From Minisyncoccota bacterium (lineage in GTDB: Bacteria; Patescibacteriota; Minisyncoccia; Phycocordibacterales; UBA9973), in assembly GCA_028718635.1 (NCBI GenBank), contig JAQULK010000001.1, forward strand, positions 24,626 to 88,625: a stretch of 64,000 nt of DNA, given 5' to 3'. The position numbers and the translations under genes were made by a program. The notes beneath the pieces are model-generated. The model was given only the letters and a program-made list of their open reading frames with translations, was not told the DNA's origin and made no database searches. The first letter of the stretch is position 1. Each line of letters opens with the position of its first letter. Of the stretch, positions 1 through 56,131 are shown piece after piece.

Positions 1-679
1 CAATGGTGAACAAGCGCTCGAAATAGTAGAGAGCTTGGTACGCACAGGAAAGATCGATGTCATCGTGGTAGACTCTGTCGCCGCACTTACTCCCAAAGAT
101 GAAATCGAAGGAGATATGGGGGCATATCATGTAGGCAAGCAAGCGCGCCTGATGTCGCAAGCGCTTCGTAAATTGACCGCTATTGTTTCTAGGTCCAAGA
201 CCGTTGTCATCTTTATAAATCAAATCCGCATGCAAATCGGAGTGATGTTCGGCAACCCAGAAACTACTCCCGGAGGAAAAGCATTGAAATTTTATACTTC
301 CATCCGGCTTGATATTCGAAAAATCGCCCAAATAAAAAAAGGAGAAGAAGTCGTAGGTTCCCGTACTCGAGTCAAAGTGGTTAAAAATAAAGTGGCCGCT
401 CCTTTCAAACAAACTGAATTTGACATCATTTACAATGAAGGAATTTCTAAAGAAGGTGAAATAATGGCGCTCGGAGAGAAATTTAAAATTATAGAAAAAA
501 GTGGAAATTCATATTTCTATTTACCCTCACCCCAACCCTCTCCCGAAGGGAGAGGGAGTCATGAGAAAATAAAGCTTGGCGTGGGTTATGATTCCACTCG
601 AAAATTCTTAAAAGAGGAAAAGAAAATTTCCGAACAAATTTTAAAAGAAATTAAGAAGAAGTTTACTGAAGAGGCGTAA
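1..679 (+). CDS. recA: Recombinase RecA, C-terminal part (5' end lies upstream of window); carries an in-frame 14-aa insert [14 protein letters not shown] encoded by a GC-rich palindrome
   Basis: Reading from pos 2 gives [32 protein letters not shown]...[28 protein letters not shown], the canonical RecA core; stop TAA at 677-679. Confidence 0.95.
524..558. repeat. GC-rich nested palindrome (family P), in-frame inside recA
   Basis: CCTCACCCCAACCCTCTCCCGAAGGGAGAGGG; about 70% GC in a 33% GC gene; encodes [12 protein letters not shown]. Confidence 0.8.
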
Positions 680-3089: not shown

Positions 3090-3926
3090 TTAAATCCCAA
3101 AGACTCGCTTGGCATTTGCGACAATAGCCTTCGCCACTTCCGGTTCTGGTAGATTTTTTATTTCAGCAATTTTTTTCACGATTTCTTTCACATAGACAGG
3201 CTCATTGCGTTTACCTCTGTGCGGTACCGGCGCTACATAAGGAGAATCAGTCTCCGACATAATCATATCAAGTGGTATGTTTCTAATAACTTCATCATAA
3301 TCATGAGTAAAAGTAATAACTCCAGTAAAAGACAGAGTAAAACCAAAATCCAGAAATGCATTGGCCTCTTTTAGAGTTCCAGCAAAAAAGTGCACATTGC
3401 CTTTTACTCCAGGAAATTCTTTCAAAATCTCTAAAACATCTTGGTACGCATTTACACTAGGATCTTTTGGATTATTCCTAATGTGTAACATAAGTGGCTT
3501 CCGAGATTCTTGCGATAAGGAAACATGTTCTCTAAAAGTTTTTTTCTGTTTTTCTATTATCTCCAAACTGCAATGAAAATAATCTAAACCACATTCTCCT
3601 ATCGCTACCACCTTTGGATCTTTTAAAAATTCTTTGTAAGCATCTCTATCAAATTTTTCGACTTTGGTTTTGAAGCCGAGACCGCCAACCTCTTCATCAT
3701 CGTGATAGGATTCTTCAAGGTGAATAGGATGCAAACCAACTATTGCAAAAACTCCTTCTTGATATTCATTAGCAATTTCAACAGCCCTTTTTGAAGTGCT
3801 AAATTGGCTTCCCACATTTATCACCCATGTGTCATTTTCTAAAGCACGTTTTATAACCTCGTCCTTATCAGACTCAAAAGCCTTAAAATTTATATGTGAA
3901 TGAATGTCGATGTATTTAGGGGTCAT
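3090..3926 (-). CDS. TatD-family metal-dependent hydrolase/DNase
   Basis: 278 aa; N-term IDIHSHINF (HxH), later conserved His/Glu/Asp positions of the TatD amidohydrolase fold. Confidence 0.8.
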   Translation of the reverse strand: MTPKYIDIHSHINFKAFESDKDEVIKRALENDTWVINVGSQFSTSKRAVEIANEYQEGVFAIVGLHPIHLEESYHDDEEVGGLGFKTKVEKFDRDAYKEFLKDPKVVAIGECGLDYFHCSLEIIEKQKKTFREHVSLSQESRKPLMLHIRNNPKDPSVNAYQDVLEILKEFPGVKGNVHFFAGTLKEANAFLDFGFTLSFTGVITFTHDYDEVIRNIPLDMIMSETDSPYVAPVPHRGKRNEPVYVKEIVKKIAEIKNLPEPEVAKAIVANAKRVFGI

Positions 3927-3949
3927 AAAATATAATTGATAAATTCAAG

Positions 3950-3983
3950 AACCTCACCCTGCCCTCTCCTTATTAAGGAGAGG
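3950..3983. repeat. Family P palindrome, left TIR of DUF559 unit
   Basis: CCTCACCCTGCCCTCTCCTTATTAAGGAGAGGG, reverse complement of the 4359-4395 copy. Confidence 0.8.
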
Positions 3984-4335
3984 GTTTAGAATCAAGTTCA
4001 GTAATAATTTTTAAAATTACTCCATCAATGTTAACATTTATTTCATTATTCCAAAAACGAATTACTTTTATACCAAACACAGACAAATAATCTGACCTCT
4101 CTGCATCATATTCTTTATTTTCAATATGTTGTGATCCATCTATCTCAATCGCCAATTTTTTAAAAGGACAATAAAAATCCAAAACATATGGGCCAACAGA
4201 ATATTGTCTTTTTACTTTAAAACCTAGTTGATTATTTCTTACTTTATTCCAAAGAATCACTTCTTGGGGAGTTTGGGAACGTCTTAATAAGATGCGCTTA
4301 GTTAAATTCTTTGATTTATTATAGAAAACCGTCAT
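3973..4335 (-). CDS. DUF559 (Vsr-like / PD-(D/E)XK endonuclease fold) protein; C-terminus SKPSP is encoded inside the flanking GC-rich palindrome
   Basis: 120 aa; ...IEIDGSQH...GIKVIRFWNNEI pattern typical of DUF559; flanked by perfect 33-bp terminal inverted repeats (3950-3983 and 4359-4395). Confidence 0.65.
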   Translation of the reverse strand: MTVFYNKSKNLTKRILLRRSQTPQEVILWNKVRNNQLGFKVKRQYSVGPYVLDFYCPFKKLAIEIDGSQHIENKEYDAERSDYLSVFGIKVIRFWNNEINVNIDGVILKIITELDSKPSP

Positions 4336-4358
4336 AAAATATATTGTGGTATTTGTAT

Positions 4359-4395
4359 CCCCCTCTCCTTAATAAGGAGAGGGCTGGGGTGAGGT
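4359..4395. repeat. Family P palindrome, right TIR of DUF559 unit
   Basis: CCCTCTCCTTAATAAGGAGAGGGCTGGGGTGAGG. Confidence 0.8.
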
Positions 4396-4397
4396 TC

Positions 4398-5855
4398 TTA
4401 ATCCCTGCGTAGGAATAATGGTTCTTCTGGCATTTTATTTTCTATAATACATTTTTGTATTTTCTTAGATGTCTCAGGTATAAAAGGTTCAAGTAAAAGA
4501 GAAATTCTGTATAATTCCTTTATTAAATTTTCACGAATCATATTTTTCCCTTCTTCTGGATTTGATTTAACTAATTTGAATGGTTGTTCTTTTTGTATAT
4601 ATTTATCAAGACCTGAGATTTTCTCCCAGATTAAATCCATTGCTTCTTTAATATTGAAAACTTCTAGGGCAGTAATAATACTTGGATAGATAGTATCATC
4701 CTCAATTTTAATATTATTTAAAAAAACAGGAGAACTTTCAAAATTTGTTTCAGCCATTTTCATTATTCTACTCACTAAATTCCCCAATCCATTCGCCAGC
4801 CCTGCATTATAAGCTTCTTTGAATCTTTCTATTGTAAAAGGACTATCTTCAAAAGAAGAAATCTCGCGTAAAAGAAAATAACGCAAAGCATCAATGCCAT
4901 ATTCTTTTACAATATCATTCGGATTAATCACATTGCCTAAAGATTTAGACATTTTAATTCCGCCTTCGCCGGTAATAAAGCCATGATAAACAATAGTATC
5001 TGTATTAGGCAGTCCTGCCGACATGAGCATCCCTTGCCACATTACTGATTGAAATTTTACCATGTCTTTGCCAGCCATTTGAATATTTATGCCATCGCGC
5101 CAAAATCTTTCGAATTTTTCTTTATCATTAGGCCATCCTAGTGTAGAAATATAATTTACTAAAGCATCAAACCACACATACATGACTTGCGTATCGTCTC
5201 CTGGTATTTCAATCCCCCAAGAAAAACGCTCTTTATTGCGAGAAATAGAAAAATCCTCCATGCCATTTTTAACAAAATCAATAGCTTCAGCCCTCCGCCA
5301 CTCTGGAATTATTGATTTTTCATTCGATAAATATTCCAAAAGCTGTTTTTTATAATTCCCCAATCTAAAAAAATAATTTTCTTCTTCAACTATCTCGGGT
5401 TCCAAGTTTGGATGAAGTTGACACCTGCCATTTACTAAATCTTTTTCAGTAATAAATTTCTCGCACCCAACACAATAAAGTCCTTTATATTTCTTTTTAT
5501 AAATATCGCCCTTTGCTTCACAAAGACGCCACATCTCTTGTGCCGCCTTGATGTGTTTTTCGCTCGTGGTTCGAATAAAATTATCGTAGGAAAGATTTAG
5601 CACGCCCTTTAAATCTAGGAACTTCTGCGCATAAAAATCAACGTAATCTTGTACATCTTTACCCTGCTTTTGGCTTGCTTCTAAAATTTTTTGACCATGT
5701 TCATCCGTGCCAGTACTAAAAAAAACGTCTCTGCCTGCTAGCCGTTGATATCGGGCAAGAGCATCCGCCTGCACGAGCTCAAGTGCAAAACCGATATGCG
5801 GATCGGCATTTACGTAAGGTATTGTCGTCGTGATGTAAAAACTATTTTTGCTCAT
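4398..5855 (-). CDS. metG: Methionyl-tRNA synthetase (short form, no C-terminal tRNA-binding domain)
   Basis: 485 aa; class I HIGH-type motif PYVNADPHIGFA and KMSKSLGNVI. Confidence 0.9.
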   Translation of the reverse strand: MSKNSFYITTTIPYVNADPHIGFALELVQADALARYQRLAGRDVFFSTGTDEHGQKILEASQKQGKDVQDYVDFYAQKFLDLKGVLNLSYDNFIRTTSEKHIKAAQEMWRLCEAKGDIYKKKYKGLYCVGCEKFITEKDLVNGRCQLHPNLEPEIVEEENYFFRLGNYKKQLLEYLSNEKSIIPEWRRAEAIDFVKNGMEDFSISRNKERFSWGIEIPGDDTQVMYVWFDALVNYISTLGWPNDKEKFERFWRDGINIQMAGKDMVKFQSVMWQGMLMSAGLPNTDTIVYHGFITGEGGIKMSKSLGNVINPNDIVKEYGIDALRYFLLREISSFEDSPFTIERFKEAYNAGLANGLGNLVSRIMKMAETNFESSPVFLNNIKIEDDTIYPSIITALEVFNIKEAMDLIWEKISGLDKYIQKEQPFKLVKSNPEEGKNMIRENLIKELYRISLLLEPFIPETSKKIQKCIIENKMPEEPLFLRRD

Positions 5856-8351: not shown

Positions 8352-8358
8352 TATTAGA

Positions 8359-9726
8359 TTAATTAATTTTCTCTTTAATATAATTTTTTAAATCTACCAC
8401 TTTTATTCTCTCTTGTTTTGCTGTATCTCGATCGCGGACAGTCACAGTGTCGTCTTCCAAAGTATCAAAATCAACCACAATACAAAATGGCGTGCCGATT
8501 TCGTCTTGTCTTCTGTATCGCTTCCCGATGTTGCCATTGTCATCCCAAGCTACTCTTCCAAATTCTTCTTTAAGTAATGCATAAACTTTTGTATTCGCAT
8601 ATTCCACAAGCTCTGGCTTATTTTTTAATAATGGCGAAACAGCACAAATAACTGGCGCAATACTTGGTTTAAGCTTCAAAAATACTCTGACGTCTTTCTC
8701 ACTTGCCCCGTCGGAAGCTTCTTGCTTTCCTTCGGGGTCTTCTGTGTAAGCCGAGACGAGCAATGCCAAGAGCGCGCGCCCCACTCCGAAAGTCGGCTCT
8801 ATGACATGAGGAATAATTTTGGCGCCTTTTTCTTCATCCAAATAATCAAGCTTGTGGTTTTTTAAATCAAAATCTGTCCTATATGCAAGCCCGAAAAGCT
8901 CGCTTCTCCCGAAAGGAAAATCAAATTCAAAATCAATCGTCCGGCTGGAGTAATGCGCTCTGTCTTTTTTGGACACTTCCAATTCGTGGACTTTGTTCAT
9001 ATCGATCCCCACCTCTTCCATCCAATCAAGCATTTCATCTTTCCAATATTCAAAATATTTTTCCCAATCTTCACTCCTAATAAAATATTCTATCTCCATT
9101 TGTTCAAATTCACGGACTCGGAAGATAAAATCGCGGGGATTAATTTCATTTCTGAATGCTTTGCCTATTTGCGCCGTACCAAAAGGAAGTTTGGGATGGA
9201 AAGCATCCACGGTATTTTTGAAATTTACAAACATTCCTTGCGCTGTCTCCGGTCGAAGATAGGAAATTGAGGAAGAATCATCAGCCGCGCCGACTTTCGT
9301 CTGAAACATCATATTGAATTTTTTTTCTTCTCCTAATTTTCCCTTACATTCGGCACATTTTATTTTGTCTTCAATTTGATCGGCTCGGAATTTTTTTCGG
9401 CATTTCTCGCACTCCACCATCGGGTCCGCAAAACCCGCCACGTGGCCAGAGGCTTGCCAGACTTCTTGACGCATCAAGATGGATGCATCAATGCCGTACA
9501 TATCACGGCGAGAATCCACAAATTTTTTCCACCAATTTTGGGTAATATTATTTTTCAAAGCCACTCCAAAATGCCCGAAGTCCCAAGTGCCTCCTAGACC
9601 GCCATAAATTTCTGAACCCTGAAAAATAAACCCTCGTCTTTTACAGAGCGAGACTATTTTTTCCATCAGATTATTCTTTTCTTCCTGCCTGCCGGCAGGC
9701 AGGTCTTTTTTGTTTTCTTCTTTCAT
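8359..9726 (-). CDS. glyQS: Glycyl-tRNA synthetase (alpha2 dimer type)
   Basis: 455 aa; class II aaRS motifs, N-term FQGSEIYGGLGGTWDFGHFG, C-terminal anticodon-binding region. Confidence 0.85.
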   Translation of the reverse strand: MKEENKKDLPAGRQEEKNNLMEKIVSLCKRRGFIFQGSEIYGGLGGTWDFGHFGVALKNNITQNWWKKFVDSRRDMYGIDASILMRQEVWQASGHVAGFADPMVECEKCRKKFRADQIEDKIKCAECKGKLGEEKKFNMMFQTKVGAADDSSSISYLRPETAQGMFVNFKNTVDAFHPKLPFGTAQIGKAFRNEINPRDFIFRVREFEQMEIEYFIRSEDWEKYFEYWKDEMLDWMEEVGIDMNKVHELEVSKKDRAHYSSRTIDFEFDFPFGRSELFGLAYRTDFDLKNHKLDYLDEEKGAKIIPHVIEPTFGVGRALLALLVSAYTEDPEGKQEASDGASEKDVRVFLKLKPSIAPVICAVSPLLKNKPELVEYANTKVYALLKEEFGRVAWDDNGNIGKRYRRQDEIGTPFCIVVDFDTLEDDTVTVRDRDTAKQERIKVVDLKNYIKEKIN

Positions 9727-12270: not shown

Positions 12271-12911
12271 TAAAATTCCTCTTCGTTATTTTTTTCAAAA
12301 TTTTTGAATGCTATATTGGCTACGCTTATTAAATATATTTCTGGAACTCTGTGTGAACTGCCAAAATGGTTTAGCATCCCGTCGTGCACAGGAAAACATA
12401 CTTTTGGATTTATGCTTAAAGCATAATTAACGGCATTCTTGATATTAGCCCAAGGGCCCGCCACAGGCAATGCCAAAATCTCAACCGGTTTGCCAGGATT
12501 GCAAAAAGAATCTCCGGGATAAAAGAATCTTTTATCAATAAAATATCCCGTATTTAATACCTGCCCAAAATCCTGATAAATCTCTTCGTGTTTGCAATCG
12601 CAAGCTTCTATTTCTACCCCGGAAAAATCTTTTAAGGTTTTATCTTTCAAGACTTCATATTTAATTCCCGCTTTTTTCAATAATTTTCCAACTCCGTCAT
12701 TTGTAATAATAATAACATTTGGATTATTTTTTATAATTTCTTTCAATGATTCAACATGGATGTGATCTCCATGTTCGTGAGTTATTAAAATTAAATCTAC
12801 ATTTTTCTCTTGCATGTGCTCTTTTTCGGTATAAAAACCCGGATCAGTCATTATCTTTTTGCCATTCGTCTCTACCACCAAGCAACAATGCCCAAGTTTT
12901 TTGATTTTCAT
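12270..12911 (-). CDS. MBL-fold metallo-hydrolase
   Basis: 213 aa; HEHGDHI (HxHxDH) metal-binding motif; overlaps recO start and ileS stop by 1-4 nt (operon). Confidence 0.6.
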   Translation of the reverse strand: MKIKKLGHCCLVVETNGKKIMTDPGFYTEKEHMQEKNVDLILITHEHGDHIHVESLKEIIKNNPNVIIITNDGVGKLLKKAGIKYEVLKDKTLKDFSGVEIEACDCKHEEIYQDFGQVLNTGYFIDKRFFYPGDSFCNPGKPVEILALPVAGPWANIKNAVNYALSINPKVCFPVHDGMLNHFGSSHRVPEIYLISVANIAFKNFEKNNEEEF

Positions 12912-15900
12912 TTATTTATTTTATCAATTCTTACCTTAAAATACAATTCATCGATTTTTACCTCTTCCCCGTCATTTTCTTTTAACTGAATTTCCTTTGC
13001 AATTACAGCTTTTTTCAACTTTTCCTCAAAATTTTGGATGAATTTTTTACCAATATCTGAAGTTTGAACAATAAGCCTGATAAATTCACTAGGAGTTAAT
13101 CCTTTCTTCTTTCTAAAATCTTGAATTGCTCGCACAAGCTCTCGATAATCCCCCTCTTGTTTCAACTCTGAAGTGATGTTTATATCAAGCTCTACTTCGT
13201 TCTCTATATTTTTATTTTCTATAACTTCTTTTACATTTAATTCATCCTTTATAAGTTCAACATATTCTTGGTCTAAATTAAAATCTTTAATTTCTAATTT
13301 GCTAAGCGGTTGACGAACTTTTATCCCTGCTTTTTGTCTCGCCTCCAGACCTTGAGTTACAATTCTTCTTGTAATTTGCATATTTTTTACAACTTCGGGT
13401 TGAAAACTAAGTTCAGAAACAACAGGCCACTCTGCCAAATGCACGCTTCCTCCATCGCCTTCTGTTTTTAATTTCAACCAAATATCTTCGGCTGTGAATG
13501 GCGCAAAAGGTGCTAAAATTTTAACAAGAGTTTCTAATATATAATACAAAGTTTGCCTTGCCTCTTTGTCTCCATTCTTAATTCTTTCTCGTGAACGACG
13601 CAAGTACCAAGTAGAAAGATCTCCGATAAAATCTTTAATTGCTCTCACTGGTTCGAGCAATTTGTAATCGTCCATCTTTTTTGTAGATTCACTAATCAAT
13701 TCATCCAACCGCGCCAAAATCCAAATATCAAGAACGTTAGACCTCACCCCCTCGCCCCTCTCCTTATTAAGGAGAGGGGTTGGGGAGAGGTGAATTGTCT
13801 CTAAGTCTTTATCTCTATACAGTTCATAAAACGCCAGCACATTGTAAAGCAACCCAAAAACCTGGCTGTAAAGCAGGGCAACTGTCTTCTCATCAAAGTT
13901 TTTTGATTCCCCTGGCTGGTTTACTGAATACATCCAAAGACGCAAGGTGTCCACTCCGTATTTTTCTATCATTTCCCAAGGATCAACAATATTACCGAGG
14001 GATTTAGACATTTTTTTACCAACAGCATCCATCAAATGTCCGAGACAAATTACATTTTTGTATGCCTTTCCTCTCCCCATAAGGATACCAACAGCGTGTA
14101 AAGTATAAAACCATCCGCGAGTCTGGTCTATCGCTTCTGAAATAAAATCTGCGGGGTATAAAATCTTGGTCTCCTTAAATGGGTAATTATCTTGCGCAAA
14201 TGGCATACATCCGGAATCAAACCAGACATCCATCACCTCGCGAGTGCGTATCAGTTTGCCACCACATGCTTGCCCTGAGCCCACCCGATGGGCACAAATT
14301 AAATTTACTTCATCAATATATGGCTTGTGTAAATCAAGTTCAAAGTCTGCATTGTGAGGAAATGGAACAAATGGCAGCTCGCGAACTTCGGCATTATTAA
14401 ATTGCCTAAATTCTTTCACAAATGCTTCTGTGTTTGGAAAATGATAAGGCTTGTCATCAGGAGTAAACAATCCGGCGTTTACAAATAAAAGCCATGCGGG
14501 TCCACCATGTGTCACAATTATGATATTTTTATTTTTGTATTTATTTTCAAGCTCGCATAATACTGCTCCAGTACGACACGCTACCTCCGCAAAAGATTCC
14601 CCATTTGGAATTTTATGATGGAACCATCCATTGCTAATCGAAAGAACATATTTATGATATTCACTCCATAACTTTCCATCAAAATCCCCAGGGTTAAATT
14701 CCTGCAATCTATCATCAAAAATTATTTGTTCATCCTTGAGATGAAGTTTTTCGTTCAAAATATTTACTGTTTGTCTTGTGCGAGTAAAAGGAGACGAAAT
14801 AATTAAATCAATTTTTTCACTAAGAATTTTTTTAGCAACCTCTGTTACTTGTTTCTGACCTTCTGGACTCAAACTGTCATCAATTTGGTTCTTGAAACTT
14901 ACGAGACCAGCCAAGTTAGCTTCAGTTCCACCATGCCGCATCACAAAATATTTATTCCCAGACTTTTTGGTTTTATTTTTTAAGTCTTCAATGCTTCCGA
15001 TGACATCCACTCTTTTACAGGATTCGCAAATCCAAACTGGCAGGGGTGTTCCCCAATACCGCTCGCGAGAGATCGCCCAATCTTTAATTTCACGAAGCCA
15101 TTCTCCAAAACGACCATCCCGAATATGCGCCGGTTCCCAGTTTATTTCTTTATTCTCAGCTATCATTTTTTCTTTTATTTTTGGATCAGAGACTTTTATA
15201 TACCAAGAATCCCGGGCATAATAAATAAGCGCCGTATGGCAGCGCCAACAATGCGGATAGGAATGTTCATATTTTTCTTTTTTTAATAAAAGCCCACGAT
15301 GCGCTAAATCTTTTATCACATCCACAGCCACATCTTCGTCGCGTACAAATCTGCCTTCAAATATTCCTGTACCCGGTAAAAATTTTCCGTCTAGACCGAC
15401 GAGATGGTGCTTCGGCAAACCAACCTTCGTGCCAAGTTCAAAATCATCCTGCCCATACATCACTGCCGTATGCACTACTCCAGTACCGTCTGCGGTCGTC
15501 ACAAAATCCGCTCCGTAAACCTTAAAGGCTTTTTCTAATTTAGGTTTTTCATTTTCAGAAATTGTGTCCTTTAAATATGGATATAATGACTCATATTCAA
15601 GACCAATTAAATCTTTACCTTTTATCTCCTTGAGTATCTTGTATTCTCCATCTATTACGGAAAGTCTTTCTTTGGCCAAAATTAAAAATTCTTTTTCTAT
15701 TTCTATTTTTACATAATCAATATCTTCCCCCACAGCCAAAGCCACATTCCCCGGCAAAGTCCATGGAGTAGTGGTCCAAGCGAGAATGTAGGTGTTGGCG
15801 GAAATGTTACTTTTGCGGGGTGTCTCGCAGGCTGACGAGCCGAGAGGCAGCGCTCCGTCAGCAGACGGAGACAGCGACCCTGCAGAAGTAATGTTTCCGC

Positions 15901-16546
15901 TTAACACTCTAAACTTCACATACACCGATAAATCTTTTACATCTTCATATCCCTGCGCCAGCTCGTGCGAAGACAAAGCTGTTCCACAACGCGGACACCA
16001 AGGCACAACTTTATAATCTTTATAAAGTAAATTCTGTTTATTTATTTCTTTAACAACATTCCAAACAGATTCGATATATTCATTGTGATACGTCACATAT
16101 GGATGCTCTTGATCCACCCAATATCCGATGCGATGAGTAAATTTATTCCAAACATCCAAATATTCCCAAACGCTTTCTTTGCATTCTTGATTGAATTTGG
16201 CAACTCCATATTCTTCAATCGCTTTCTTAGAATTCAACCCAAGTTTTTTTTCTACTTGAAGTTCTACTGGCAACCCGTGGGTGTCCCATCCGCCTTTTCT
16301 CCGCACATGAAAACCTTGCATAGTTTTGTATCTGGGAATTGCGTCCTTGAATGCTCTAGCTTCCAGATGATGAATGCCTGGCTTGCCATTGGCCGTCGGC
16401 GGACCTTCAAAAAAAACAAATTCTCCTTGAGGCGACTTTTTTGCCAGAGATTTCTCAAAAGTTTTATTTTCTTTCCAAAACTCCAAAATCTTCTCTTCGC
16501 GCAAAGCTGATTCGCTTTTTTTATTTTGTATATTTTTTTCTTCCAT
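12908..16546 (-). CDS. ileS: Isoleucyl-tRNA synthetase (eukaryote-like type 2) with an inserted histidine-phosphatase (PGAM-like, RHG) domain and two GC-rich in-frame insertions; likely start at ATG 16544-16546 (MEEKNIQNKK)
   Basis: GPPTANGKPGIHH (HIGH-type), editing-domain WTTTPWTLPGN, DWAISRERYWGTPLP, KMSKSLGN; between the zinc knuckle ICESC and HKPYIDE lies VMRHGGTEANLAG...IIIVTHGGPAWLL, the RHG...HG signature of histidine phosphatases. Confidence 0.9.
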   Translation of the reverse strand: MEEKNIQNKKSESALREEKILEFWKENKTFEKSLAKKSPQGEFVFFEGPPTANGKPGIHHLEARAFKDAIPRYKTMQGFHVRRKGGWDTHGLPVELQVEKKLGLNSKKAIEEYGVAKFNQECKESVWEYLDVWNKFTHRIGYWVDQEHPYVTYHNEYIESVWNVVKEINKQNLLYKDYKVVPWCPRCGTALSSHELAQGYEDVKDLSVYVKFRVLSGNITSAGSLSPSADGALPLGSSACETPRKSNISANTYILAWTTTPWTLPGNVALAVGEDIDYVKIEIEKEFLILAKERLSVIDGEYKILKEIKGKDLIGLEYESLYPYLKDTISENEKPKLEKAFKVYGADFVTTADGTGVVHTAVMYGQDDFELGTKVGLPKHHLVGLDGKFLPGTGIFEGRFVRDEDVAVDVIKDLAHRGLLLKKEKYEHSYPHCWRCHTALIYYARDSWYIKVSDPKIKEKMIAENKEINWEPAHIRDGRFGEWLREIKDWAISRERYWGTPLPVWICESCKRVDVIGSIEDLKNKTKKSGNKYFVMRHGGTEANLAGLVSFKNQIDDSLSPEGQKQVTEVAKKILSEKIDLIISSPFTRTRQTVNILNEKLHLKDEQIIFDDRLQEFNPGDFDGKLWSEYHKYVLSISNGWFHHKIPNGESFAEVACRTGAVLCELENKYKNKNIIIVTHGGPAWLLFVNAGLFTPDDKPYHFPNTEAFVKEFRQFNNAEVRELPFVPFPHNADFELDLHKPYIDEVNLICAHRVGSGQACGGKLIRTREVMDVWFDSGCMPFAQDNYPFKETKILYPADFISEAIDQTRGWFYTLHAVGILMGRGKAYKNVICLGHLMDAVGKKMSKSLGNIVDPWEMIEKYGVDTLRLWMYSVNQPGESKNFDEKTVALLYSQVFGLLYNVLAFYELYRDKDLETIHLSPTPLLNKERGEGVRSNVLDIWILARLDELISESTKKMDDYKLLEPVRAIKDFIGDLSTWYLRRSRERIKNGDKEARQTLYYILETLVKILAPFAPFTAEDIWLKLKTEGDGGSVHLAEWPVVSELSFQPEVVKNMQITRRIVTQGLEARQKAGIKVRQPLSKLEIKDFNLDQEYVELIKDELNVKEVIENKNIENEVELDINITSELKQEGDYRELVRAIQDFRKKKGLTPSEFIRLIVQTSDIGKKFIQNFEEKLKKAVIAKEIQLKENDGEEVKIDELYFKVRIDKINK
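13742..13797. repeat. Family P full-length nested palindrome, in-frame inside ileS
   Basis: CCTCACCCCCTCGCCCCTCTCCTTATTAAGGAGAGGGGTTGGGGAGAGGTGAATT; encodes ...LTSPQPLSLIRRGARG... segment of IleRS. Confidence 0.75.
15817..15888. other. Second GC-rich hairpin-containing in-frame insertion in ileS editing domain
   Basis: GCTGACGAGCCGAGAGGCAGCGCTCCGTCAGC nested in GCAGG...CCTGC; encodes SGNITSAGSLSPSADGALPLGSSACETPRKSN absent from canonical IleRS. Confidence 0.5.
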
Positions 16547-16760
16547 AATTTTGTATTTTAAAAAATAAAACCCGTCCTCATGCAAATAAAAATAATTGCA
16601 CAAGGACGGGCTTCGCCGTGGTACCACCTTGCTTTTTACCCGCCTTTGGCGGGGCTTCTCATTTAAAGGGTTCTACTTTATTGCTAGGTCTTGCCTAGCA
16701 ATATTTCTTCCCAAAGCTCCGAGGCGATACCCTCTTCAACGCTTACTATTACAATATAAC
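16547..16760 (-). promoter_or_regulatory. T-box-like riboswitch leader of ileS (T-box sequence + intrinsic terminator/antiterminator)
   Basis: Minus-strand RNA reads ...GCAAGGUGGUACCACGGCGAAG (T-box consensus AGGGUGGNACCGCGG) immediately followed by hairpin CCCGUCCUUGUGCAAUUAUUUUUAUUUGCAUGAGGACGGG + UUUUAUUUUUU, then ATG of ileS about 25 nt downstream. Confidence 0.55.
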
Positions 16761-35784: not shown

Positions 35785-36324
35785 TTAATAACTCCCTCTT
35801 AAAACAATCGTATCATAAAAATCTTGAGTATTGCCTGATGTATCATTGGCAGACTTAAGAGTTAAAACTATTTTAACTGCTTTTCCTTTGGTCGTATTTA
35901 TTTGAGTAAAAGCGAGAGCGGTCACTGTAGTATTGGGTGAATTTAGGTTTCCAATATTACTACCGGTATCCCAAAGTTGAATATTCGGACTAATAAATTT
36001 AAATTCAGTGGTTTTGCCACTTCCAGCATCAAGCACTAAATCATTTGTGCCGATGGAGATGATTCCGTTCGCTTGCCTGATTTCTCTCGACATCCTTTCC
36101 ATGATACTTCCACTTTGTACTAGTTCTGCCTGTATAGTAGTTTCCTTAAACGATCTTGCCATTGTTATCATGGCATTGATCACCAATGAAGAAAGAACCG
36201 AAAAAAAGGCAATATAAAAGAGAAGTTCTAAAACACCATATCCACCAGACAGCGCCTTAGGCGCTGTCTGAGCGCCTAAGGCGCTGTCTGGTTTTGTTTT
36301 CGCAGTTTTTCGCAGTGTTCGCAT
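35785..36324 (-). CDS. Type IV pilin-like (prepilin-type) protein; N-terminal region extended by two palindromic repeat copies
   Basis: 179 aa; class III signal SGG|YGVLELLFYIAFF with Glu at +5. Confidence 0.5.
   Translation of the reverse strand: MRTLRKTAKTKPDSALGAQTAPKALSGGYGVLELLFYIAFFSVLSSLVINAMITMARSFKETTIQAELVQSGSIMERMSREIRQANGIISIGTNDLVLDAGSGKTTEFKFISPNIQLWDTGSNIGNLNSPNTTVTALAFTQINTTKGKAVKIVLTLKSANDTSGNTQDFYDTIVLRGSY
36244..36290. repeat. CCAGACAGCGCCTAAGGCGCTGTCTGG palindrome, tandem 1.5 copies, inside the 5' coding region of pilin-like gene
   Basis: Encodes KPDSALGAQTAPKALSGG just before the prepilin cleavage motif. Confidence 0.6.
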
Positions 36325-43718: not shown

Positions 43719-43866
43719 CCCCCTAAATCCCCCTTGTCAGGGGGACTACCTCACCCCTTGCTTTCCCCCTCTCCTTAATAAGGAGAGGGGCTGGGGAGAG
43801 GTGAATTCCTCCCCTGACAAGGGGAGGGCAGGAGGGGTTGGGAGGGGGTCAGGAGGGGTTGAATTT
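43719..43866. repeat. Composite of three tandem family-P palindromes in the pilB upstream intergenic region
   Basis: CCCCCTTGTCAGGGGG ... CCCCTCTCCTTAATAAGGAGAGGGGCTGGGGAGAGGTGAATT ... CCTCCCCTGACAAGGGGAGG ... GGGAGGGGGTCAGGAGGGG. Confidence 0.8.
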
Positions 43867-43867
43867 G

Positions 43868-45349
43868 TTATTCTTCTATATACCCTGGAATTTTCTTTTG
43901 TGAACAAGAATCAGATCCACAAGTCCAAGTCCACTTAGTGGGACTACTTATTCTATTTGTACCAGAATCACAAGTATGATCAGCCGAACCAAGAGGACAA
44001 ACAGCAGGATCACCGTCACATTTGTAATGTTTCATTGGAAGAATATTACAGCCACCAGAAATACAAGATCCACCAGTACATGATTGAGAAGAATTTCCCA
44101 AACAATTAGCTCCGCCATTTGCTGGGCTTGGATTTGTACAAGAACGAGATTGGTTACAAGAAGCATCACAAGTACTCCAATCGCTCCACCCACCATCAAC
44201 AGGAGTAAGTATCACTGCACATTTCGCCCCATCCCAACCGGTTCCTCCTGCGCAAGTTGCAGTAGCTGTAGTAGTGGCAAGTAATTTTGAATTATTATAA
44301 AGATAAAAATTTCTGGTGCCTTTTGGAGAGCCACCGGTTACAGAATAAGTTGCTGAACCTGACAATCCAGTTGCCACAATGATATTTGTAGGAGTTGTGA
44401 CTGAAGAAGAAGTCCACTCAGGATTAGTTGTAGTCCAAGCTAGGTTTGTAATGCAACTACTTGCTCCGGATGCAATAGTACAATTAGAAGCAGTTAAGGT
44501 GCCATACATGCCTGTGCTTGCTACTGTGAAGGTAGCAGAGGCAGTCAGACCACTGTATGTAGCTCGAATAGAAGTAGAACCACCACTTACTGCAGTGGCT
44601 AAACCAGAAGAGTTAACAGTGGCAATAGCAGTATTGAGTGAAGACCAGGTAGCTGAGCTAGTCACAGTCTGACTAGCTTGAGGACCGGAACCGTCTGGAT
44701 CGTAAGTAGCTACGAACTGCTGAGTTTCTCCGACATTCTTGGTAGCAGAAGAAGGGGTGACGACAAGGGTAGGGGTAGGAGCCGCTGAAACAGCAACACC
44801 ACTAAAATCAATCCAACCCACGACTTCACTCCCCCAACCACATTCAGTCGAAGGACAGCTAGATGGTGTAGAACTAGTACTATCCAAAGTTACCCCATAT
44901 CCTGTACCAGAAAGAGCAATCCAACCATCCCAACCACTACTGCCATCTCCTCCAGAAACTGCTTTTGCCCAACCAGTTAAATTACTACCTGTAATTTTCG
45001 CGTTATCAGCGGTGGTTCCACTACCAGTCGGCCAACCAGAAAGTCCGCCGAACTTTATCCATCCGATATTGGGTGACCAAGCGTAACCTGTAAGATAACC
45101 GCTCGCATCTTTATTGACGCCATAGCTCGAAGTCGCGCAATTATTACCAGTGTTCGTGCAGTTGAAACTAATCCAACCGATATTTGATGACCAAGCATAA
45201 CCGGAAATATTGTCCGTAGTGCTTGCTGAGGCTAAAAAAGGTAAAAAACAAAAAACTCCAAACACTAAAACAAAAATAACTTTTAAGAAAGATTCCGAAA
45301 AAAAATTCGGAAAAAACTTCGAGGGAAACTTTGGGAAATAAATTTTCAT
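43868..45349 (-). CDS. Secreted repeat protein with G(Y)AWSxNIGWIxF repeats, Big_2-like Ig domain and Cys-rich C-terminus
   Basis: 493 aa; TM/signal near N-term; repeated GYAWSSNIGWISF / GYAWSPNIGWIKF / VVGWIDFSG motifs; Ig-like segment ATKNVGETQQFVATY...SIRATYSGL. Confidence 0.45.
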   Translation of the reverse strand: MKIYFPKFPSKFFPNFFSESFLKVIFVLVFGVFCFLPFLASASTTDNISGYAWSSNIGWISFNCTNTGNNCATSSYGVNKDASGYLTGYAWSPNIGWIKFGGLSGWPTGSGTTADNAKITGSNLTGWAKAVSGGDGSSGWDGWIALSGTGYGVTLDSTSSTPSSCPSTECGWGSEVVGWIDFSGVAVSAAPTPTLVVTPSSATKNVGETQQFVATYDPDGSGPQASQTVTSSATWSSLNTAIATVNSSGLATAVSGGSTSIRATYSGLTASATFTVASTGMYGTLTASNCTIASGASSCITNLAWTTTNPEWTSSSVTTPTNIIVATGLSGSATYSVTGGSPKGTRNFYLYNNSKLLATTTATATCAGGTGWDGAKCAVILTPVDGGWSDWSTCDASCNQSRSCTNPSPANGGANCLGNSSQSCTGGSCISGGCNILPMKHYKCDGDPAVCPLGSADHTCDSGTNRISSPTKWTWTCGSDSCSQKKIPGYIEE

Positions 45350-51500: not shown

Positions 51501-51509
51501 ACTTAATAG

Positions 51510-51536
51510 CCAGACAGCGCCTAAGGTGCTGTCTGG
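51510..51536. repeat. Second copy of CCAGACAGCGCCTAAGGTGCTGTCTGG palindrome, immediately upstream of nusA start
   Basis: Near-identical to 36244-36290. Confidence 0.6.
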
Positions 51537-52743
51537 TGCAAAAAAATTTATGTTAGACATAAAAACATTCAGGTCAGCGTTGGAACAATTGGAGGAAGAG
51601 AGGAAAATCCCAAAAGAAAAAATACTGGAAGCTATAGAGCAAGCGATGGCCGCTGCTTATAAAAAAGATTATGGCAAGAAAGGACAAATCATCCGAGCAA
51701 AGTTCGATATGGAAACTGGTAAAACAGATTTTTTCCAAGTAAAAATCGTGGTAGACGAAAGTATCGCCATTATGGATGACGAAAGACCCCTACCCAACCT
51801 CCCCCTTAATAAGGGGGAGGAGCAAGGAGGGGGTGCAGACGAGCGCGTGCATTTTAATTCCGAACATCACATTCTTCTCGAAGACGCAAAAAAAATTACA
51901 AAGGGAGCCGAGCTAAATGACGAAATAATTTTTCCACTAGAACAAAAAGACAATTATGGACGCATCGCCGCACAGACCGCCAAGCAAGTCATCATCCAGA
52001 AGATCCGCGAGGCAGAACGCACTTCTATTATAGATGAATATGGCACCAAAGAGGGCGAGGTTATTTCCGGCATAGTGCAAAAAGTAGAAAGAGGAAACGT
52101 CTATGTCGATTTCAACAGAGCTACCGGAATATTGCCTACCGAAGAACAAATCCCAGGAGAATATTGGACTCGCGGACAAAGAATCCGAGCTTATCTTTAT
52201 AGCGTGGAAGACACTCATCGAGGCATCAACTTGCGCCTTTCTCGAACTCATCCCAAATTTGTAGAAAAACTTTTTGCCATAGAAGCGCCAGAGATAGAAA
52301 ACGGCATAGTAGAGATTAAATCTATTGCGCGTGAAGCAGGCGCTCGTTCAAAAATTGCGGTTTATTCAAACGACGAGCACATCGATCCAGTCGGCTCTTG
52401 CGTCGGCCAAAAAGGAACCAGAGTAAACACTATCACCACCGAACTTTCCGGAGAAAAAATCGACATCATTCCTTGGTCCTCTGATCCTTCTCAATTCATT
52501 TCTAATTCTCTTTCTCCAGCCAAAGTTATTTCGATTGTTATAGACGAGAAAGAACACAAGGCCATCGTGGAAGTGGCCAACGATCAGCTGTCGCTCGCCA
52601 TCGGCAAAGGCGGACAAAATGTGCGCCTCGCCGCCAAACTGACCGGCTGGAGGATAGACATAAAAGGCGATGATTTGTCTGCGCAAACAGAAAAAGAAGT
52701 TGTTAAAAATGAAGAAGACGTTAAGGAAGATGAATCCCGTTAG
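51526..52743 (+). CDS. nusA: Transcription termination/antitermination factor NusA (probable true start ATG about 51551); contains in-frame palindrome-encoded insert RPLPNLPLNKGEEQGGG
   Basis: NusA N-domain, S1 domain (GEVISGIVQKVERGNVYVDF), two KH domains (GSCVGQKGTRV, LAIGKGGQNVRLAAKLTGW); stop TAG inside repeat arm. Confidence 0.85.
   Translation: MLSGAKKFMLDIKTFRSALEQLEEERKIPKEKILEAIEQAMAAAYKKDYGKKGQIIRAKFDMETGKTDFFQVKIVVDESIAIMDDERPLPNLPLNKGEEQGGGADERVHFNSEHHILLEDAKKITKGAELNDEIIFPLEQKDNYGRIAAQTAKQVIIQKIREAERTSIIDEYGTKEGEVISGIVQKVERGNVYVDFNRATGILPTEEQIPGEYWTRGQRIRAYLYSVEDTHRGINLRLSRTHPKFVEKLFAIEAPEIENGIVEIKSIAREAGARSKIAVYSNDEHIDPVGSCVGQKGTRVNTITTELSGEKIDIIPWSSDPSQFISNSLSPAKVISIVIDEKEHKAIVEVANDQLSLAIGKGGQNVRLAAKLTGWRIDIKGDDLSAQTEKEVVKNEEDVKEDESR
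51787..51836. repeat. Family P palindrome, in-frame inside nusA
   Basis: CCCCTACCCAACCTCCCCCTTAATAAGGGGGAGGAGCAAGGAGGGGGTG. Confidence 0.75.
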
Positions 52744-54910: not shown

Positions 54911-55020
54911 TCCCGTTAGAGGCCGCGGTCGCATATGGGAAGAAGAATTAGAAAATTATTATTAATTTAATTTAGGCAGTATGTAAGTTCAATGCGAACG
55001 CGACCTGCCTCTAACGGGAT
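54910..55020. repeat. Intergenic palindromic element, copy 7: hppA-tig spacer
   Basis: hppA TAA overlaps ATCCCGTTAGAGGCCGCGGTCGC ... GCGACCTGCCTCTAACGGGAT directly followed by tig ATG; arm change AGAAG->AGAGG compensated by CTTCT->CCTCT. Confidence 0.8.
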
Positions 55021-56131
55021 GAAAATTACTGTAAACAAATTACCAAAAAGCGAAGTAGAAATCGAAGGTGAAATAGACGCTGAGATTTTTGAATCTTATT
55101 ACGAGAAAGCGCTCAAGAAAATCGGCGAGAATTTTGAGACGGACGGATTCCGCAAGGGCAAAGTGCCGGAAAATATTTTACTTTCCAAAATTCCAGAAAT
55201 CAGCATCTTGGAAGAAATGGCAGAGATGGCTTTGAGCGAACATTATCCTAAAATAATTGAGAGTGAAAAAATAGATGCCATAAGTCGCCCAGAAATTTCA
55301 ATTATAAAATTAGCGCGCAAGAATCCTTTAGGATTTAAAATAAAAACCGCCATCTTGCCGGAGATGAAACTTCCTGACTATAAAAATATCTCTAAGAAAA
55401 TAACTTCTGAAATTACTGATGCTGAAAAAAATATCGTCGTCTCTGATGAAGATTTAGAAGCCACCATTATGGACATCCGTAAATCTCGCGCACCCAAGGT
55501 GCATATGGCAACCCCTCCCCAACCCCTCCCCGAAGGGGAGGGGGGAATTTCTTCCTCCCCTTCGGGGAGGACTGAGGAGGGGTCGGAGAAGGCGGGGGAT
55601 GAGGTGGAACCCGAACTCCCTGCATTTGATGATGAATTTGTAAAAGGTCTTGGTCCTTTCAAAGATGTGGAGGATTTCAAAACAAAACTAAAAGAAAATA
55701 TAAAACTAGAAAAAGAAAACCAACAAAAAGAAAAGACCAGATTGAAAATTATAGAAAAAATAGTCGAGGATAGCGTTATGGATTTGCCTGAGATTTTGGT
55801 TGAAGTTGAACTAGATAAAATTCTATACCGCATGGAATCCGACATTACTCAAATGGGATTGAAATTTGAAGACTATTTGAAACATTTAAATAAAACCAAA
55901 GAGGATTTGAGAAAAGAATTCAGAACGGATGCCGAGAAGAAAGCCAAGCTTGCTCTTATCTTAAATGAGATAGCTAAAGTTGAAAAAATAGTCGCCGACC
56001 CCGAGCAAGTCGCCAACGAAGTCGCAGCTATTTTGGAACACTATAAAGACGCCGACCCCGAGCGCGCTCGCATGCACGCCGAAAACGTCCTCACCAACGA
56101 AAAAATATTTCAGTTTCTAGAAAACCAGTAA
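55019..56131 (+). CDS. tig: Trigger factor (ribosome-associated chaperone); contains about 30-aa in-frame GC-rich insert
   Basis: MKITVNKLPKSEVEIEGEI... trigger-factor N-domain; start at ATG directly after TCTAACGGG; insert TPPQPLPEGEGGISSSPSGRTEEGSEKAGDE. Confidence 0.8.
   Translation: MKITVNKLPKSEVEIEGEIDAEIFESYYEKALKKIGENFETDGFRKGKVPENILLSKIPEISILEEMAEMALSEHYPKIIESEKIDAISRPEISIIKLARKNPLGFKIKTAILPEMKLPDYKNISKKITSEITDAEKNIVVSDEDLEATIMDIRKSRAPKVHMATPPQPLPEGEGGISSSPSGRTEEGSEKAGDEVEPELPAFDDEFVKGLGPFKDVEDFKTKLKENIKLEKENQQKEKTRLKIIEKIVEDSVMDLPEILVEVELDKILYRMESDITQMGLKFEDYLKHLNKTKEDLRKEFRTDAEKKAKLALILNEIAKVEKIVADPEQVANEVAAILEHYKDADPERARMHAENVLTNEKIFQFLENQ
55511..55600. repeat. Two tandem family-P palindromes, in-frame inside tig
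   Basis: CCCCTCCCCAACCCCTCCCCGAAGGGGAGGGG and CCTCCCCTTCGGGGAGG ... GGAGGGGTCGGAG. Confidence 0.75.

Follow-up and report, generated by a model that had tools for sequence, protein, structure and literature searches.

A 64,000-nt stretch of contig JAQULK010000001.1 from a Minisyncoccota bacterium (assembly GCA_028718635.1, positions 24,626–88,625; hereafter the window) carries, between metG and a tatD-family gene, a small gene for a DUF559 protein, a putative Vsr-fold PD-(D/E)XK endonuclease, that is bracketed by inverted GC-rich palindromes. The locus raises two questions, namely whether the gene and its flanking palindromes form a single mobile unit and whether the nuclease has a part in the spread of such palindromes. 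An original prediction, made from the sequence of the window, had described the locus as resembling a minimal autonomous element and the solitary palindromes scattered over the window as its derivatives. We find that positions 3947–4399 are very probably a discrete, horizontally spreading, repeat-bounded DUF559 cassette, inserted precisely where the metG stop meets the tatD start. To the further proposal that the nuclease is functionally linked to palindromes of the BoxC type, in the manner of either repetitive extragenic palindromic (REP) elements and their associated tyrosine transposases (RAYT) or a free-standing homing gene, we assign a probability of roughly one half.

The repeat-bounded unit is 453 bp long and its final two bases overlap the metG stop codon (4398–4400). 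The left repeat (38 nt, 3947–3984) consists of an AAGAA tail (3947–3951), an outer C-block CCTCACCC (3952–3959), a TG spacer and a 23-nt hairpin, CCCTCTCC-TTATTAA-GGAGAGGG (3962–3984), with a folding energy of −10.5 kcal/mol (z = −3.2). The right repeat (39 nt, 4361–4399), at the 5′ end of the gene, comprises the hairpin CCCTCTCC-TTAATAA-GGAGAGGG (4361–4383), a CTG spacer, an outer G-block GGGTGAGG (4387–4394) and a TTCTT tail; on the forward strand it reads as a three-block motif of the BoxC/PIT type, and the left repeat is the complement of that motif. In each flank an entire hairpin lies on the gene side and a single outer block beyond it; gene-less solo copies have one hairpin between two outer blocks. 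Four copies of the 23-nt core CCCTCTCCTTAWTAAGGAGAGGG are present in the window, where 100 shuffles led us to expect none.

Both flank sequences quoted in the original prediction are present in the window, but they are near-perfect rather than perfect 33-bp inverted repeats: the arms as quoted measure 33 and 34 nt and are one substitution and one indel apart, in the spacer between the blocks (TG vs CTG). Repeat finding returned a 28-nt pair at 96% identity and a separate perfect 13-nt pair (AAGAACCTCACCC/GGGTGAGGTTCTT). Exact 33-bp repeats were accordingly rejected in favour of the longer arms of 38 and 39 nt; the repeats run 5 nt further out than had been supposed, and the 446-bp unit first proposed (3950–4395) becomes one of 453 bp. 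The last residues of the protein (SKPSP) and its stop codon had been placed inside the left repeat, which holds for P-S-P, encoded by the hairpin, and for the stop codon (3973–3975), located in its loop, but not for S and K, which are encoded outside the palindrome. [quoted passage not shown] TTAA, a candidate target-site duplication, flanks both ends of the unit in two related loci (L114 and L001) and does so imperfectly in the window and in two others (L083 and L002); being itself palindromic, TTAA could equally be an extension of the repeat.

The bracketed open reading frame (ORF; 3973–4335, reverse strand) encodes, as had been predicted, a 120-aa DUF559 protein, full length with respect to its homologs. 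It matches Pfam family PF04480 above the curated threshold (E = 4.5e-33, 113.8 bits, cutoff 20.6) over profile positions 9–108 of 109, and the DUF559 structure PDB 3HRL over residues 22–114 (E = 6.1e-19); its match to NCBIfam NF007294 (E = 7e-23, 80.9 bits) falls below the equivalog cutoff of 218 bits. D53, E64, D66 and H70, predicted to be catalytic, are invariant in 29 homologs. DUF559 is the sole Pfam match of the protein, which gave none to the HUH Y1 transposase family PF01797, and a tblastn search of the 64-kb window found no second DUF559 copy. Since no convincing promoter is present in the 25-nt leader (4336–4360, reverse strand) that separates the ATG from the upstream hairpin, the gene is probably transcribed by read-through from metG.

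That the unit is a discrete insertion is apparent from the junction that it occupies. In the window, metG (4398–5855, reverse strand), whose stop codon abuts the unit, the DUF559 gene and the tatD-family hydrolase gene (3090–3926, reverse strand) share one strand. We took a census of this junction over 80 metagenome loci found with the window tatD together with the synteny loci, leaving aside 12 further loci without both junction genes. In 41 loci, the nearest relative (L092) among them, we scored the junction as empty, the metG stop and the tatD ATG being 0–15 nt apart or overlapping; in 17 it is filled by a DUF559 unit. Three loci have a palindrome remnant at exactly this point (a four-block solo of repeat family C in L124 and a hairpin alone in L142 and L158), three have a short AT-rich spacer of 44–121 nt with no palindrome (L152, L153 and L164), and 12 have other inserts, including genes for RAYT-like Y1 transposases with REP-like hairpins of their own. 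All junction units begin 0–5 nt past the metG stop, and 17 out of 17 are co-oriented with metG and tatD. No fewer than three repeat families are represented, A (GAACCTCACC...), C (ATACCCCCACC...) and the type of L096 and L154, and the occupied junctions are scattered over the tatD tree. A distribution of this kind, patchy, out of step with the host and tied to one conserved position of which empty alleles exist, is what is seen with homing genes. Milman et al. found 'DUF559 domain-containing protein' to be 14-fold enriched among predicted inversion targets, i.e. inverted-repeat-associated genes, which prompted us to consider an inversion switch; it was rejected because all 17 units are co-oriented with the operon and flipping was not seen.

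The same holds at a second site. The gene order of the window (ileS – lactamase_B – recO – x – class II aminoacyl-tRNA synthetase (aaRS) – M16 peptidase – AI-2E – metG – DUF559 – tatD – S6 – SSB) is identical around ileS–SSB in the Nomurabacteria contig MFWB01000011 (L083), which has, besides the unit at metG–tatD, a second repeat-bounded DUF559 unit of ∼ 450 bp (ends AGCACCCCCTCC.../...GGGGTGGGGTGCT) at the aaRS–M16 junction. In the window this junction is empty, with 7 nt (8352–8358) between the class II aaRS stop and the M16 peptidase start and no palindrome; the indel is bounded by the repeats. The ends of each L083 unit match each other and not those of the other unit. Empty sites, which it had been suggested to look for in related strains, are thus found at metG–tatD in relatives and at aaRS–M16 in the window itself, and we conclude that repeat, gene and repeat together are the indel, gained and lost as one unit.

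Some units hold more than the nuclease gene. The unit at 9570–10390 in L083 has its metG-side repeat upstream of a glyoxalase gene, which it therefore carries inside as a passenger; genes for an APH-like kinase and a nucleotidyltransferase-like protein, the latter with a weak, sub-threshold Pfam match, lie inside the repeats in L120 (1057–2494) and L160 (1368–2494). In L159, a GNAT acetyltransferase gene stands beside DUF559, and no repeat was seen downstream. DUF559 is missing from L129 and L140, although a family-A repeat is present on the side of metG.

Comparison of the unit with its surroundings points to spread independent of the host. The DUF559 protein of the window is 86%, 84% and 85% identical to its counterparts in L001, L002 and L003, for which the corresponding values are 70%, 54% and 52% in metG and 67%, 54% and 62% in tatD; in L011 and L013 the protein is 59% and 57% identical, metG 68% and 73%, and tatD 63% and 59%. 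At the DNA level, the unit of the window is 76–90% identical to those of L001, L002, L083 and L114, and identity drops to 40–70% at the repeat ends. The family of the repeat follows the clade of the protein, not the host: family A accompanies proteins of 78–100% identity and family C those of 50–59%.

The association of gene and palindrome extends well beyond this lineage. A search with the window protein retrieved 844 homologs at E ≤ 1e-3, the closest (92% identical) from Parcubacteria/Paceibacterota assemblies. At least 82 of the 120 best homologs have hairpin-encoded C-termini (...PSP-stop or ...PLLNKERxG), and a few have hairpin-derived N-terminal extensions. We then sampled one genome per species and took the best 80 of 596 relatives, which come from Patescibacteria, Nitrospirota, Desulfobacterota, Proteobacteria, Chloroflexota, Bacteroidota, Verrucomicrobiota and other phyla. 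The flank-to-flank inverted-repeat score reached at least 14 in 42 of the 80 DUF559 loci and in one of 416 position-shifted controls. GC-rich pyrimidine/purine hairpins were found on both sides of 47 out of 77 DUF559 genes, compared with three out of 187 other ORFs of at least 150 aa from the same loci (odds ratio 96, Fisher p = 8e-28). Among loci with a third block on the gene-nearest hairpin on both sides, the flanking motifs form an inverted pair in 34 and share one orientation in seven, and there are two mirror architectures, with the outer block distal in eight loci (as in the window) and proximal in 26. DUF559 genes are thus consistently flanked by inverted palindromes both in this lineage and in many other phyla, and the bracket is a cross-phylum property of DUF559 that includes ycjD and BoxC of Escherichia coli. 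Carriage by phages amounts to just 25 weak matches (32–47% identity), mostly on short viral contigs and near contig ends.

In E. coli, the palindromes have a history of their own. They form the family known as BoxC, PIT or 'intrastrand triplex motif', which is widespread in bacteria (Holder et al., 2015, PMC4666352) and, according to these authors, was described earlier by Bergler (1992) and Hoyne (2000). The consensus of the E. coli motif (TMECO) is CCCTCNCCC-N3-6-GGGNGAGGG-N3-GGGNGAGGG, with 23 copies in strain K-12, five of them as inverted pairs (PMC4666352); by blastn, we found a median of 19 BoxC copies per E. coli genome. The right repeat of the window, CCCTCTCC-TTAATAA-GGAGAGGG-CTG-GGGTGAGG, fits this three-block class (C-block, loop, G-block, spacer and a second, mirror G-block), its 8-nt blocks and 7-nt loop placing it just outside the E. 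coli consensus. The original prediction had treated the palindromes as one family and had missed that they belong to this known class. The repeats of the window share with BoxC the three-block layout with a 3-nt spacer, the dispersed, multi-copy occurrence, the inverted pairs, the marking of variable loci and the lack of a known function or mobilizing enzyme. They differ in block and loop length and in that many are four-block full palindromes; whereas the E. coli copies are always intergenic, those of the window also lie in frame in recA, ileS, rnhA, recJ, nusA and tig; and the bracketing of a DUF559 gene by an inverted pair has not been reported for BoxC.

YcjD, like PDB 3HRL, belongs to the same family as the window protein, DUF559, of unknown function. 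Like the window gene, ycjD has a palindrome-encoded C-terminus and is a presence/absence allele at a fixed locus: in K-12 it ends SPSP-stop inside a degenerate motif, and it is present in single copy at sapF–fabI in 3378 of 5426 complete E. coli genomes, the eefRABCD efflux operon taking its place in the remaining 38% (PMC12817139). The sequence CCCTCGCCCCTCTGGGGAGAGGGTTAGGGTGAGGGG, 170 bp downstream of ycjD towards fabI, is TMECO no. 9 (Holder et al., 2015, Table 1). Given the 23 copies spread over 4.64 Mb, we estimate a probability of ∼ 0.002 for a BoxC copy to fall within 170 bp of a given gene end. Unlike that of the window, the ycjD unit is degenerate, lacks an upstream motif and has a partial 3′-end duplicate downstream; this duplicate of the 3′ end of ycjD, followed by TMECO no. 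9, is seen at K-12 positions 1,351,040–1,351,830 (L172) and in L216.

The gene-less palindromes of the window bear on its relationship to the unit. BoxC-type hairpins number at least 12 in the 64 kb, with inverted pairs at 43720–43840 and 55505–55583, and are thus dispersed and multi-copy. Just two solos have the exact core of the unit, both of the four-block form: one at 13741–13796, in frame in ileS (...HLSPTPLLNKERGEGVRS...; fold −19.6 kcal/mol, z = −5.1), and one at 43748–43808, which lies in an intergenic stretch and is enclosed by two three-block motifs, inverted to each other, that belong to another family. The palindromes in frame in recA, rnhA, recJ, nusA and tig, which had been assigned to the same family, have the architecture of the unit but different cores, so that the exact core is confined to the ileS and intergenic copies. 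Both core-sharing solos carry an asymmetry of the outer arms, CCTCACCCC/GGGGAGAGG, that is absent from the unit and are therefore not copies of its ends; their direct derivation from this unit, as originally proposed, was rejected.

Some of these copies have a layout of interest in its own right. At 43720–43875, the intergenic solo sits between the members of an inverted pair with another core (CCCCCTTGTCAGGGGGA / CCTCCCCTGACAAGGGGAGG), an arrangement like the bracket of a DUF559 unit with a palindrome as 'cargo'. The tig ORF (54971–56131) contains an inverted pair of three-block motifs at 55505–55583, 9 nt apart and in frame in trigger factor, that resembles a gene-less pair of unit ends and may be compared with the five inverted TMECO pairs of E. 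coli K-12.

Taken together with known systems, these observations allow a mechanism to be proposed. In the REP/REPIN–RAYT systems, as here, inverted copies of a short, GC-rich palindrome that is also dispersed in many gene-less copies stand on both sides of a low-copy enzyme gene (Nunvar, 2010, PMC2817692; Ton-Hoang, 2012, PMC3333891). The window unit differs in encoding a PD-(D/E)XK Vsr-fold nuclease instead of an HUH Y1 transposase, in having no GTAG/CGTC heads, in its host-incongruent presence and absence and in that its palindromes are tolerated inside ORFs. I-Bth0305I, of the EDxHD family, is a Vsr-fold homing endonuclease whose homodimer has a 14-bp pseudopalindrome as its cleavage site (Taylor et al., 2011, PMC3239194); the catalytic fold is similar, and these too are selfish genes found sporadically at conserved gene positions. 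However, I-Bth0305I is a multidomain protein with a footprint of ∼ 60 bp, located in a phage group I intron (PMC3239194), whereas the window protein is a bare, free-standing 120-aa domain within an inverted-repeat bracket that is absent from homing genes. Rickettsia palindromic elements (RPEs) and MITEs such as Correia and NEMIS are likewise short palindromic repeats with no enzyme of their own, and RPEs are found in frame in protein-coding genes; these elements are longer (100–150 bp), however, and have no evident sequence relationship to the window repeats, and MITEs derive from IS elements with DDE transposases and clear target duplications.

By analogy, the system may be likened to REP/RAYT or to a free-standing homing gene, though with another enzyme fold at its base. 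Probably as a homodimer, in the way of I-Bth0305I, the nuclease would recognize the palindromic core of its own flanks and nick or cut it, which would let host replication or repair copy or relocate the cassette; it might also act in trans on gene-less copies, both four-block solos and inverted pairs. A further precedent is the DUF559 protein VsrA of Caulobacter, which causes DNA damage in vivo. Other gene-less copies may arise in place by deletion between two identical hairpins. The two hairpins of the unit repeat each other in direct and in inverted orientation alike, and the L124 solo corresponds to a family-C unit minus the gene and one hairpin. Membership in either model family proper is not borne out, because there is no HUH transposase and no co-conversion of the flanks, and 'autonomous transposon' is an analogy, because a PD-(D/E)XK nuclease has no known strand-transfer chemistry. 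Of the idea of a minimal autonomous element there thus survive the repeat–gene–repeat unit of presence and absence and its host-independent spread, while signs of recent transposition are lacking. The literature searched contains no paper treating DUF559 as a mobility enzyme, in agreement with what had been stated, nor did we find one there that links DUF559, YcjD or COG2852 to BoxC-type or other palindromic repeats, the enrichment among inversion targets seen by Milman et al. coming closest.

Several observations weigh against a functional link of this kind. The metG–tatD junction also gathers RAYT units and unrelated genes, and may be a mere permissive hotspot. Identical DUF559 proteins always occur in one context (24 contigs examined for P0014, 24 for P0104 and 15 for P0075), and recent transposition to new sites was rejected because none of these three proteins was seen in a different one; the window protein itself was found elsewhere only on a 2.1-kb contig with an identical context, and near-identical copies at several different sites were not seen, the window having one copy. 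The close subfamily is nearly always at metG–tatD and so behaves more as a resident bound to its site than as a promiscuous transposon. The metG and tatD flanks showed no co-conversion tracts, identity there being at background from the repeat ends onwards, and homing-type co-conversion of these genes was rejected. We know of no strand-transfer activity for the PD-(D/E)XK or Vsr fold, and the link between DUF559 and the palindromes is one of sequence comparison. In E. coli, BoxC is retained in 5426 out of 5426 genomes although 38% lack ycjD, so that maintenance of the repeat is independent of ycjD. Numbers are also uneven, with at least six palindrome core families in the window against one DUF559 gene, and ∼ 14 palindromes against two DUF559 genes in 20 kb of L083. 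A correlation between palindromes and DUF559 does exist in their density: outside the junction, TM-type hairpins occur at 0.172 per kb in loci with DUF559 (n = 7) and 0.038 per kb in loci with an empty junction (n = 34), a 4.5-fold difference (one-sided Mann–Whitney p = 0.007) in a small sample.

The alternative that survives best, though we regard it as unlikely, is that the palindromes are targets, i.e. that DUF559 is a homing-type selfish gene which cuts resident BoxC-type palindromes, either four-block solos or inverted pairs, and is copied into them by repair, the palindromes spreading by other means. It would account for a unit that amounts to a solo plus the gene and one extra hairpin inside, for the proximal-block layout, which equals an inverted motif pair of the E. 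coli type with a gene in its spacer, for the solo remnants at the same junction as the units, and for the sporadic distribution incongruent with host phylogeny; I-Bth0305I supplies the Vsr-fold precedent. Yet most unoccupied junctions have no palindrome (41 empty vs three with remnants), and the aaRS–M16 junction of the window is clean, so that either insertion needed no resident palindrome or such intermediates are short-lived. Moreover, the great majority of palindromes never gain a gene, and the co-conversion of flanks expected of homing was not seen.

Somewhat less probable again is a host function, with DUF559 acting as a domesticated repair or defence nuclease, similar to the enzyme of very short patch (VSP) repair or a processor of hairpins or triplexes, and the palindromes being regulatory, mRNA-stabilizing or simply piled up wherever a compact genome offers one of its few permissive intergenic sites. 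Caulobacter VsrA is functionally tied to a cytosine methyltransferase, which has been read as VSP repair. The co-orientation of all 17 units with the operon, without a promoter of their own, the stable position in the close subfamily and the hotspot character of metG–tatD would also fit. PADLOC returned for the window protein marginal matches to restriction-type nucleases, too weak for membership in a defence system, which was rejected. It is harder to see on these terms why the gene is gained or lost together with both repeats, why these are mutually inverted and match each other in preference to other palindromes of the same genome (both units of L083), why unit DNA is much more similar between hosts than the flanking genes and why hairpins on both sides are found in merely 2% of other ORFs in the same loci. 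Nor do the hairpins resemble terminators: T-tract terminators were not found among them, for which reason a terminator role was rejected, and E. coli BoxC showed neither promoter nor terminator activity (PMC4666352).

It is improbable that the cassette is moved by an unlinked transposase with DUF559 as its commonest passenger, even though other passengers occur in the units, L129 and L140 have repeat ends without DUF559 and the nuclease fold lacks strand-transfer chemistry. Profile searches gave no match to transposase families (DDE, HUH, serine or tyrosine) among the genes of the unit, DUF559 being the sole one; it alone recurs with the palindromes across phyla, its clades co-varying with repeat sequence. 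In E. coli, no mobility gene, transposase or integrase was found near any BoxC site (Holder et al., PMC4666352). Chance juxtaposition with generic GC-rich intergenic hairpins, common as these are in the window, is effectively refuted by the enrichment across 77 loci, the single control in 416 that reaches the score, the coincidence of the indel boundaries with the repeats and the independent replication of the pairing in E. coli.

If the functional link between DUF559 and its palindromes holds, a broader statement may be ventured, although we think it rather less likely than the link itself: BoxC/PIT-type palindromes throughout Bacteria could owe both their origin and their movement to DUF559 proteins, with a minimal Vsr-fold nuclease working on ends able to form hairpins or triplexes. 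As with REP/RAYT, there would be a 'master' gene within a bracket and many copies without a gene, some tolerated in frame in essential proteins, and mobile elements would gain a new class with such a nuclease as its driver. Neither the repeat class nor the protein family is new in itself; what is new, within the literature searched, is their pairing, the behaviour as a cassette and the presence of copies in frame in essential genes. Catalogues of BoxC/PIT/triplex-motif repeats go back to the 1990s and cover E. coli and thousands of genomes, yet the repeats have no known function and have lacked a partner for ∼ 30 years; DUF559, among the commonest bacterial domains of unknown function, may be that missing partner. 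The two puzzles would then become one testable hypothesis, YcjD acting on BoxC, in the best-studied bacterium. There would be a second genome-structuring system of the REP/RAYT type, enzymatically unrelated to the first, and the link could help to explain the in-frame GC-rich palindromes in housekeeping proteins of ultra-small Patescibacteria.

The metG–tatD junction is, in related Paceibacteria, a common landing site of two unrelated enzyme-plus-palindrome systems. RAYT units share it in four relatives: Y1_Tnp (PF01797) was confirmed in L102 (645–1319, E = 3e-11) and L110 (1807–2481, E = 7e-09), and L104 and L113 are assigned from flanking hairpins and sequence akin to these. The window also holds a separate palindrome family, CCAGACAGCGCCTTAGGCGCTGTCTGG, at 36244–36292 and 51509–51543, which is not of the pyrimidine/purine block type. 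Its ileS (12908–16627) has a histidine-phosphatase domain, His_Phos_1 (aa 561–719), inside the catalytic domain, as it does in relatives. Over its C-terminal 225 aa, RecA of the window (2–679) is ∼ 95% identical to that of L083 (13268–14305), the values for metG and tatD being 52% and 62%; the recA insert is at the same position in both, as a clear palindrome in the window and a degenerate stretch in L083.

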